This document shows, piece after piece, positions 54,501 through 57,500 of a stretch of 64,000 bases of DNA. Under the pieces are notes generated by a model. The model did no database searches and was not told where the DNA came from. It saw nothing but the letters and a program-made list of their open reading frames with translations. The position numbers and the translations under genes are program-made. The DNA lies in contig MU053588.1 of NCBI GenBank assembly GCA_013239625.1, positions 2,242,508 to 2,306,507 on the forward strand. The letters are read 5' to 3'. The DNA is from Lama guanicoe. Taxonomy: Eukaryota. Position 1 is the stretch's first letter, and each line of letters starts with the position of its first letter.

Positions 54501-57500
54501 CGTGTGCAGCCATTCCAGCATCAACCACCCTCTTTGCTGTGAGGAAGGCTTCCTTCCACATGGCTCTATTCCCAGCTACCGAACCATGGCTTGCGAGACC
54601 CCAGCAAGAAGCTCCCGGTCCCAAGAGAGACAGACAGTGGTAACAAATGAGGGTTTTTGCTTTACATTTCTAAATTTTGAGTAGTTTGTTCAATAGAGAT
54701 AACTGAAAAGCATGTCAGAAAGGAGATAAGATCCAGCAGGAAAGAGCATAGAAAGTGTGGTGGGAAGGTTTGCAATTTTAGACGGGGCAGGAAAGGCCCG
54801 GCAGATCGGGAGTGGTCAGGCTGGCCGCCACCCTGCAGCTGGATCCCCGCCCACTCACCTATGTGTGGTGGCATCACAGCCACGTACTTCAGGCCCGACT
54901 CCTGCAGTACTTTGTGCATCCGGATGTGGTCATCGGTCACATCCTGCAGTCTTGGGGGCACCTTGGATGGGTCCCACAGTAGGAAGGCTGGGGGGACACA
55001 GGGCAGGCTCAGCCAAGGCTTGAGGACAGCCCGACCAGGTCCCCAGTTCGCCCCTCTCATGCCCAGACAAACCCCGACAGGAGCTCACTACTGCCCTCCA
55101 GTTGCTGCAGGCGGAAACGTGGGAGCTGTCCTGGCCTGTCTTTCTCTCACAGCTCACATCACTGGACATTACCTCCTGGCTAGACCAAGACAGCCGCCTC
55201 CTCCCTGGTCTCCCTGCCCTGGCCTCCCACATTCTGTTCCTCCTGCACAGCCAGAGGGGGCCTGGGAACATCCAGAGGGGTTGGATCTCATCTGTGGCCC
55301 CATCTTACTCCAGGTAAAAGCAAAGGCCCCATCAGGTCCACGAAGCCCCACCTGATCTGTCCACATCAGACTTCTGACCTCACCGCCCAACCATCTCCCC
55401 TTCACTTGCTCTGCTGTAGCCATGCTCCTGCCTCACAGCCTTTGCTAAAGCTGTGCCCTCTACCTGGAGTCCCCTGCTCTCCCCACACCTCCCTCATGTC
55501 ACTTCCCTTCCCTGGGAGGCAGTGGGAGAGATGAAACAGAGGTGAGGAGTATGGACTGTGGAGACAGACAACCTGGTCCCACACCCACACCCCAGCTCGA
55601 CCAGCCACAAGCTGTGTGACCTCTGGTAAGCTGACGGGCCTATCTGTGCCTCCACTTCCTTAGCTATACCAGGAAGGCAATAAGAACAGCTACTTGTTAC
55701 TGAGCACCTACTATGTGCCACTATAAATAGAACTCAAAGGAGTTTTAAGAGAATTCAGTGGCATTCATCTGTAAGGTGCTAAGATGGTGCCTAGTACACA
55801 GTAGGTGCTCAATAAATGCCAACTGTTGGCATTAACTGCTCCTGGTACCCTGCAGCCTTCCTTTCAGATTATTCGGGGCAACCATTAGTTTAATGTCCAC
55901 CTCCTCGTAAACTGGGAGCTCTGTGAGGGTGGAGATCTGGTCTTGTATCCATGGCTCTGTCATGTCCTCTAGGATGCTCTCCCTGTCTCAGGGTGAGTCA
56001 GACACCTCCTCTGGGCACCCTGCGTCCTCTAGGCTTCTTCCATCTGAGCCCTGATCCCTCTGCCCATGCTCCCCCTCCCCATTATCCTGGCCCTGACTAC
56101 TCTGGCCAGTCACTGTTTGATAATGGCTCTGTTGCCACTTCCCTCCTATCTGTGAGACCCAGAGTGCAGGGCCCAGGGCTGTATTGTGTCCCTGGCATCA
56201 CTCAGCAATGTTCAGGCGAGTACTTAGTGCTCAAGAAATGCATGGTAACTCGGGATGGCTCCAATGCCACCTCGTAGAAGCCCCTGGGCTGCCTGTCCTA
56301 GACCTACCCCCCAACTCTTCAGCCCCACCTCTCTGACCCAGCCACCCACCCGAGGTGCAGGCCACGACCTTGTCCACGCCGTGGGCCTTCATGGCCGCCA
56401 CAATGTTCCGGGCACCCTCGGACATCATTGTGGTAGGACCTTAGAGGAGACAGAGAGTGGCAGTCACTGTTAGGGGGCCTAGTACTAAGGTCATTGCGGG
56501 TGCCCAGCAGCACGATGACGGCGTCCTGTCCAGCCACGGTCTTGTCCACATCGGCTGCCTGCCGAACGTCACCCACTATCACATGGGCCGGCTGGGGCCC
56601 TTCTGAGGGCAGCCTGGAAGCGTCCCGCACCAGCACTGTCACCTCATAACCTGCAGGCAGAGAGGGGCAGAGAGGCAGGTCAGTGGCCTTGTGGCTGGCA
56701 CTCCCAGGTGCCAGGGGCTGGGTCCTGGAGGGTGCCATGAACACCCAAATCCATCCCCTAGGTCCCTTTCTCTGGGACAATGGTCTTCAGACATTTTTGC
56801 TGGCATACTCACAGTTGATATCCAGATGGTTATTAAAATAGGGTGATACCTTCATAAATAACTGGCTCTGATGCCCCCAAGGGCCTCCTCTATGTACCGC
56901 CCTACAATGCAACTTCTCCACCCTCCAGAAACTAAAGTAAATGCCCGCATCACACTGGTCTTTGCCCCCCATCCATGGTCCTGGAGGAAGCATGAGTTGC
57001 CCAAAGGTTGTACATTGTTGGGTTTGGTCCCCAGGCCTTCCTTACTTCTGAAGGGCTGGGCCATGTCTTAGTGATCATTAAAGACTTTGAACATCACCTT
57101 GGCATGCCACCTACCCAAAAAACTTTGGATAACTATGTTCCCCCACAACACACACATACACCCCCTTTTTAAAGTTTATAACCAACGTATTTCTTCCTTT
57201 GTTTTAAATACCTCAGTGGTAGAGCACGTGCTTAGCATGCACAATGTCCTGGGTTCAATCCCTAGTAGTTCCCTTAAAAAATAAGTAAATAAATAAACAA
57301 ACCTAATTACCTCTCCCCACCAACCAAAAAAAGAAAGTGAAAAAAAAAGGAGATAAAGAGTTAATAGGAAAAAATAGTAAAGGATATTAATGTTTGTGTA
57401 TACTGCAAAAAAAAATTATTAATTGTAGTCTCTGTTATGGACTGAATGCTTGTGCCCCCAACCCAAATTTGTCTGCTGAAGCCCTAATCCCCAATGTGAT

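Follow-up and report, generated by a model that had tools for sequence, protein, structure and literature searches.

A 46-nt intron 2 of BLVRB in a guanaco assembly: a likely 90-nt deletion and its possible splicing

Can a mammalian spliceosome remove a coding intron of 46 nt, or does an intron of this size point to a defective allele or to a fault in the assembly? How introns under about 50 nt fit the spliceosome has been called enigmatic (10.1101/784868); canonical introns below 70 nt are rare and deletions risk being mistaken for introns (PMC5435141). The question is raised by intron 2 of BLVRB in the 64,000-nt stretch of Lama guanicoe DNA analysed here (contig MU053588.1, positions 2,242,508 to 2,306,507, hereafter the window). 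A preliminary description of this DNA proposed a lineage-specific ultra-short intron, a retention-prone or hypomorphic allele, or an assembly deletion, and these proved to be the right candidates. We find that the 46-nt intron is real in the assembled sequence; the deletion behind it is likely present in the animal but may be an assembly error.

The BLVRB gene in the window

BLVRB lies on the minus strand of the window, a point absent from the preliminary description, with five coding exons that total 621 nt, or 206 codons plus the stop. Its features are as follows.

63234..63312, minus strand: BLVRB exon 1, coding part of 79 nt; 26 of 26 residues equal the dromedary and Bactrian models
56486..56650, minus strand: BLVRB exon 2, 165 nt; 54 of 54 residues equal dromedary model P0004
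56480..56488, minus strand: intron 2 5' splice site TTA/GTACTA, very weak; A/GTAC (Ser-Thr) common to 30 of 30 orthologous peptides
56440..56485, minus strand: BLVRB intron 2, 46 nt, GT-AG, phase 1; C17 T12 A9 G8
56469..56477, minus strand: putative junction of a 90-nt deletion, CCC CCT AAC, from the alignment; Pro-Pro codons on either side
56463..56468, minus strand: AGTGAC, likely ancestral branch site (putative use); the A at 56464 is intron position 22, 25 nt from the 3' end
56443..56457, minus strand: intron 2 polypyrimidine tract, 14 of 15 pyrimidines (intron positions 29-43), then the AAG acceptor
56437..56492, no strand: 8-bp perfect inverted repeat, arms 56485-56492 and 56437-56444, one over each splice junction
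56350..56439, minus strand: BLVRB exon 3, 90 nt; 29 of 29 residues equal both camel models
First intron base 56368, minus strand: internal alternative donor of exon 3, AAG/GTCGTG, from the sequence
54859..54987, minus strand: BLVRB exon 4, 129 nt, from the sequence
51538..51695, minus strand: BLVRB exon 5, coding part with stop; 51 of 51 residues equal both camel models

Intron 2 reads GTACTAGGCCCCCTAACAGTGACTGCCACTCTCTGTCTCCTCTAAG (46 nt, window 56485-56440 on the minus strand), with the length and the boundaries given in the preliminary description, which had also noted the pyrimidine tract. Exon 2 matches residues 27-81 of human BLVRB, and removal of the 46 nt produces the join NDL-S-PTT, the commonest form of this join among database proteins (66 of 125). 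Eleven in-frame GT/AG pairs span 46-140 nt; only the 46-nt pair loses no residue, and the other ten, each removing 14-29 residues, were rejected as alternative splice sites. The earlier statement that splicing is needed to form the peptide TRNDL-S-PTT is thus upheld, no alternative in-frame splice keeping the enzyme whole. The window is free of N.

Other parts of the gene showed features of their own. Exon 1 ends in a GC donor (CAG/GCATGA, window 63226-63236), and the GC-AG first intron of BLVRB is reported to be conserved in mammals (PMC7242645); camel models P0004 and P0209 miss this donor and contain false insertions. The exon 5 acceptor (window 51688-51700) is a tandem GCAG-GAG site, and both HIGD and HIAGD are found in database proteins at the exon 4-5 join, pointing to 3-nt alternative splicing nearby. 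Upstream of the start, the frame at 63313-63435 has no stop for at least 41 codons and agrees with an N-terminal extension of the Bactrian model over most of its length; extensions of a similar kind are found in bat, lemming and yak BLVRB models.

The orthologous intron and the missing 90 nt

Database proteins that read through intron 2, taken as genomic translations, give the length of the intron as 3n-2, an estimate to which only in-frame read-throughs are visible. We compiled the annotated isoforms of human (A0A2R8YEP4) and mouse (E9PZC3) together with those corresponding to them in cattle, sheep, whales, bats, carnivores, primates and elephant, and added frames without annotation from Logan and ENA contigs. 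Full read-through of intron 2 was found in 46 of 223 fetched proteins, representing 30 distinct peptides, with intron lengths of 136 nt (19 peptides), 142 nt (5), 133 nt (3), 127 nt (2) and 139 nt (1). The comparison of orthologous intron lengths that the preliminary description had proposed is in this way answered for placentals (127-142 nt) and not for camelids: protein searches (79, 11 and 61 hits) and clusters, with 40 of 212 and 40 of 97 members examined in the two large ones, yielded no camelid read-through protein, short or long. The camelid models found were P0004 and P0209 (normal join), P0006 (aberrant join) and P0128 (a diverged copy), none of which gives the length of intron 2. An alignment-based scan of JGI metagenomes produced 464 pattern matches and three loci, all of them intronless bacterial-like homologues of 55-68 % identity and none from a mammal. 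In the titles and abstracts of the open literature searched, neither a short BLVRB intron 2 nor a proline-rich isoform came up.

The read-through peptide of the narwhal (P0014) is STRPPLCPRPTPAPRPPAPPPPPAPPLPPPPPPPPTSDSHSLSPLR; its counterpart in the window has 16 codons and keeps both ends. In the alignment to the orthologues the window is without 30 central codons, that is 90 nt, and Pro-Pro flanks the break on both sides. The missing stretch consists to 69 % of Pro codons and is at least 50 % C. Two residues among the 16 retained codons are rare in orthologues, and only 1 of the 30 distinct peptides has two or more rare residues; this may hint, weakly, that constraint was relaxed after a deletion long ago. 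Among the visible orthologous read-throughs (P0014, P0097, P0031, P0105 and others) length changes only in multiples of 3, and the more distant homologues P0129 and P0130 also run from Ser-Thr-Arg into proline-rich sequence.

Mean identity to human over 30 proteins was 0.92 for the intron-coded peptide, 0.91 for exon 2 and 0.77 for exon 3 in the shifted frame. Judged from these sequences, the orthologous intron 2 of placentals is under exon-level constraint, because its read-through peptide is kept at 0.92 and exon 2 at 0.91. The source of the constraint may be sense coding, an antisense glycine-rich frame or selection at the nucleotide level. Many of the annotated read-through isoforms are probably projections of the human one, so that they show DNA and not expression. 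The conserved proline-rich read-through of the 136-nt intron is possibly an overlooked and unstudied BLVRB isoform, or else a conserved splicing element.

As 46 leaves a remainder of 1 on division by 3, retention was expected in the preliminary description to frameshift the enzyme. The read-through frame of the retained intron is open through exon 3 and, with normal exon 3-4 splicing, reaches a stop about 19 codons into exon 4. Retained transcripts are predicted to undergo NMD because this stop lies some 70 nt upstream of the last junction. The frameshift claim holds for this splicing pattern and need not hold for another: an internal donor of exon 3 serves the annotated human isoform and is still present in the window (56368), and retention combined with its use adds 27 nt and restores the frame.

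Deletion in the animal or in the assembly

The reading that we favour, with evenly balanced confidence, is that the 90-nt deletion is genuine, has become fixed in this camelid lineage and leaves a 46-nt intron that is still spliced at the same GT and AG. This and the confidence given below for three other readings are our own weighing and not computed values. Only a few bases of CCN microhomology are common to the flanks of the deletion, probably not enough to be collapsed by a de Bruijn or overlap assembler. Neighbouring frames were used as a check on the quality of the assembly: those at 17031-21008, 37661-38398, 46390-47034 and 9252-14903 (-), which we take to be the PRX last exon, SERTAD1, SERTAD3 and HIPK4 exons, are all open, and the repeat-rich PRX last exon forms a single frame of 1325 codons.

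One alternative, which we consider rather unlikely, is that the animal has the usual intron of about 136 nt and that the C-rich 90 nt were dropped in amplification, cloning or consensus calling, the lost stretch being G-rich on the other strand and likely quadruplex-prone. The missing piece is exactly the low-complexity part of the intron. Models or contigs from other species break at or beside the same tract (P0006, P0027, P0056, P0057, P0059, P0072, P0121 and P0126), among them Bactrian camel, polar bear, colugo, a lemur and three ENA records, and the same cause has left bird assemblies without GC-rich genes, among them BLVRB (PMC4539667). An artefact would also remove the steric problem discussed below and would fit the protein evidence fully. 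Against it, the deletion is clean and N-free with a microhomology of a few bases, whereas assembly usually fails at hard sequence by leaving a gap; none of the 30 orthologous peptides has the Asn codon of the junction, which cannot be derived from either flank; and the remainder of the window is well assembled. The RefSeq model of the Bactrian camel, P0006, has the aberrant join TR-SPLG-PTT at exactly the exon 2-3 boundary. None of the GT-AG, GC-AG or AT-AC pairs tried by hand reproduced this join from the window, and it is perhaps the product of a different deletion or of misassembly.

A run index for positions 54750-56900 (2.15 kb) covered 24 runs and 225 words. The best 11 DNA runs, from four studies and under four organism labels, all hold 0.97 of the words, three more hold 0.96, and no run is complete. 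The shortfall of 6-7 words compares with about 3.2 words for one junction and about 6.4 for two sites, and a loss of 6 or 7 words has a probability of 0.08 with one site and of 0.32 with two, the shortfall not being localised within the stretch. Therefore something in these 2.15 kb is absent from all the best runs, and it could be the junction. The share of 0.97 in all of them counts against a fixed, spliced deletion and in favour of an artefact; it is weak evidence, compatible with a junction that is false or private and one more difference, but also with two private variants or filtered words. Among the RNA runs, word shares of 0.39, 0.35 and 0.24 compare with 0.14 expected from exons alone; X19 and X20, at 0.07, and X21-X24, at 0.00, were left out of account.

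Alternatively, the deletion may be real and at the same time a rare or private allele on the assembled haplotype, a poorly spliced hypomorph tolerated in a heterozygote and leading to retention with NMD or to exon 3 skipping, with about 136 nt in most camelids. We regard this as quite improbable. It would account jointly for the clean assembly, the 0.97 share in other runs and the unchanged protein sequence, and likewise for the detection of the protein in other animals and for the steric rule. By our estimate, however, such alleles are expected to be rare per haplotype, and an older event agrees better with the two rare residues next to the junction.

Exons 1, 2, 3 and 5 are identical to the dromedary model P0004 in 160 of 160 residues (160 of the 206 codons, exon 4 lying outside the comparison). 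The end of intron 1, which P0004 reads through, shows at least three differences from the window, in two residues and through one short insertion. The comparison by itself points to a camelid other than the dromedary, probably a South American one. Conserved exons beside a diverged intron end would fit purifying selection on the enzyme. Camelids make BLVRB, because the protein is detected by proteomics in alpaca and dromedary; the detection is silent on the length of intron 2 in those animals. The alpaca protein (A0A6I9ILA3, 22.1 kDa) was identified with 3 and 4 peptides in a proteome of reproductive fluids (PMC12631973, supplement file 3, row 385), in what is probably, from the legend of the paper, the oviductal-fluid table, where peptide sequences are not listed. 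Its mass is that of the full-length enzyme, human BLVRB of 206 residues computing to 22.1 kDa. BLVRB protein is also reported from dromedary kidney (PMC8222267). That study covers two dromedary genes with the Ensembl name BLVRB, and one of them responds strongly to dehydration in kidney cortex (padj 1.9e-8). The wild camel has a second BLVRB-like sequence (P0128), 80 % identical over exon 2 and possibly a retrocopy.

Two further points stand against the deletion being both fixed and spliced. Camelid read-through proteins were not found in the searches described above, and the models of several species break at this place.

Splicing of the short intron and its known relatives

Donors were scored by Watson-Crick matches to the U1 5' end over 11 positions. 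The intron 2 donor has 3 matches, compared with 6 for the donors of introns 1 and 3, and 93 % of the 3331 GT sites on the minus strand of the window score at least as well. All 30 orthologous peptides share A/GTAC (Ser-Thr), so the weakness of the donor is old. Among 60 short homologues that have this exon end, mostly fish-like by sequence, 29 have Ser-Lys and 13 Ser-Glu; these correspond to the canonical donors A/GTAA and A/GTGA at the same site, and intron 2 is therefore probably an old intron of the U2 type.

The preliminary description had named CTAAC as the branch point. The motif is there, as CCCTAAC with its A at intron position 16 (56470), and it sits on the deletion junction. TGAC (A22) is likelier to be the ancestral branch site, because the Ser-Asp codons AGT-GAC are kept in 30 of 30 orthologous peptides and the Asn codon of CTAAC in none of the 30; for either motif, branching is a prediction from sequence. 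U2-type introns have their branch motif 18-37 nt from the 3' end, and intron 2 has a branch-like A22 at 25 nt together with GT-AG ends and a pyrimidine tract, only the donor being poor for this type. The U12 type, with its extended consensus at the donor and its branch box near the 3' end, was rejected, since the donor reads GTACTAGG and some 30 nt separate CTAAC from the 3' end. The G-rich subclass to which ESRP2 and NDOR1 belong was rejected as well, G making up 8 of the 46 nt with no GGG.

It is also conceivable that the deletion is real and fixed and that the mRNA is formed through other sites, or by a non-spliceosomal route guided by the 8-bp stem. The very weak donor speaks for such a route, as does the inverted repeat over both junctions, a repeat of at least 8 bp occurring in 26 of 1500 shuffles of the intron in a post hoc comparison. 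Yet shuffled sequences fold as stably as the region does (z = -0.05), by which special RNA structure at intron 2 was rejected; an IRE1-type CNG-CNG motif is absent from the junctions by eye; the ten other GT/AG pairs would take residues out of the protein fold; and the Ser-Lys and Ser-Glu forms of distant homologues speak for an old U2-type intron. We consider this route highly improbable.

Splicing is also constrained by space. From the donor to either candidate branch A the distance is 15-21 nt; the minimum is put at about 50-52 nt, and splicing of MINX70 was abolished at 46 nt (PMC6692369, Keiper et al.). This distance counts against the deletion being fixed and spliced, as do a donor no better than a random GT and an intron that is not G-rich like the human cases of 43 and 49 nt.

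If the deletion is nevertheless fixed and the intron spliced, as we favour, the course of events could be as follows. Slippage or microhomology-mediated repair between CCN-CCN runs would have deleted the middle of the intron and left its splice signals in place (donor, candidate branch site TGAC, pyrimidine tract and AG). U2 factors would bind the intact 3' half, with branching at A22 or at the A16 made by the junction. With 15-21 nt between donor and branch, U1 and U2 could not fit side by side, and the poorly U1-matched donor might be engaged late or briefly and then passed to U6/U5, the short-intron helpers SPF45 and Smu1/RED being candidate cofactors. Removal of the shortened intron by the major spliceosome would probably be leaky. 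Unspliced transcripts would go to NMD through the exon 4 stop, or be rescued in frame by the alternative donor of exon 3 as a form of 215 residues without the proline tract of the 245-residue isoform of other mammals.

We would go further only tentatively, and with somewhat less than even confidence, in proposing that camelids constitutively splice a 46-nt intron that is not G-rich, has a donor on a par with a random GT and has its branch about 21 nt from that donor, efficiently enough for an abundant enzyme, and that they lost the proline-rich peptide, an unstudied second product, by the same deletion. If this is true, the donor-to-branch limit of about 50 nt could be crossed by a single deletion. 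If the deletion is real, intron 2 joins the ultra-short introns as a new, lineage-specific case and offers a natural experiment on the size limit of the spliceosome. The few human ultra-short introns have no long counterpart for comparison; the 46-nt and 136-nt versions of intron 2, between nearly the same exons, would be a ready-made pair for examining the donor-to-branch limit. If the animal has 136 nt, the case is a mere assembly error at a tract that is hard to sequence, and the conservation in placentals still stands.

Known systems resemble this intron in different respects. The 'Hidden genes in birds' (PMC4539667) are likewise rich in C/G runs, BLVRB is named among them, and models of other species break at the tract here; in birds, whole genes are missing or gapped, whereas the window has a clean 90-nt deletion without N. 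The placental isoform that retains intron 2 (human A0A2R8YEP4, mouse E9PZC3, 245-247 aa) is exitron-like. As in that isoform, the window keeps the open read-through frame, both peptide ends and the alternative donor of exon 3; unlike it, the window is without the 30 central proline-rich codons, giving a predicted 215 instead of 245 residues.

Human ultra-short introns of 65 nt or less, in ESRP2 (43 nt), NDOR1 (49 nt) and HNRNPH1 (56 nt), are spliced (PMC4463651, Shimada et al. 2015), and by length (46 nt in the assembly) and GT-AG ends BLVRB intron 2 falls within the same definition (at most 65 nt). It resembles these three in lying within coding sequence, in having weak signals and in a length that is not a multiple of 3, which makes the retained form an NMD target. 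The short introns of ESRP2 and NDOR1 are G-rich and are spliced in 1 of 4 and 3 of 11 transcripts, respectively (PMC4463651); the BLVRB intron is 17 % G without a G-rich enhancer, and its splicing, here predicted, would be needed for the main product. It also differs from the introns of Shimada 2015 in deriving from one 90-nt loss, the intron having 127-142 nt in other placentals.

Introns that depend on SPF45/RBM17 (Fukumura et al., 10.1101/784868) or on Smu1/RED (PMC6692369) are likewise short; they leave little space from donor to branch, and their 3' half is short. The SPF45-dependent class is marked by a truncated pyrimidine tract and by retention when SPF45 is depleted; the tract of BLVRB intron 2 has 14/15 pyrimidines. 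The targets of Smu1/RED have 50-70 nt from donor to branch (PMC6692369) compared with 15-21 nt in BLVRB intron 2.
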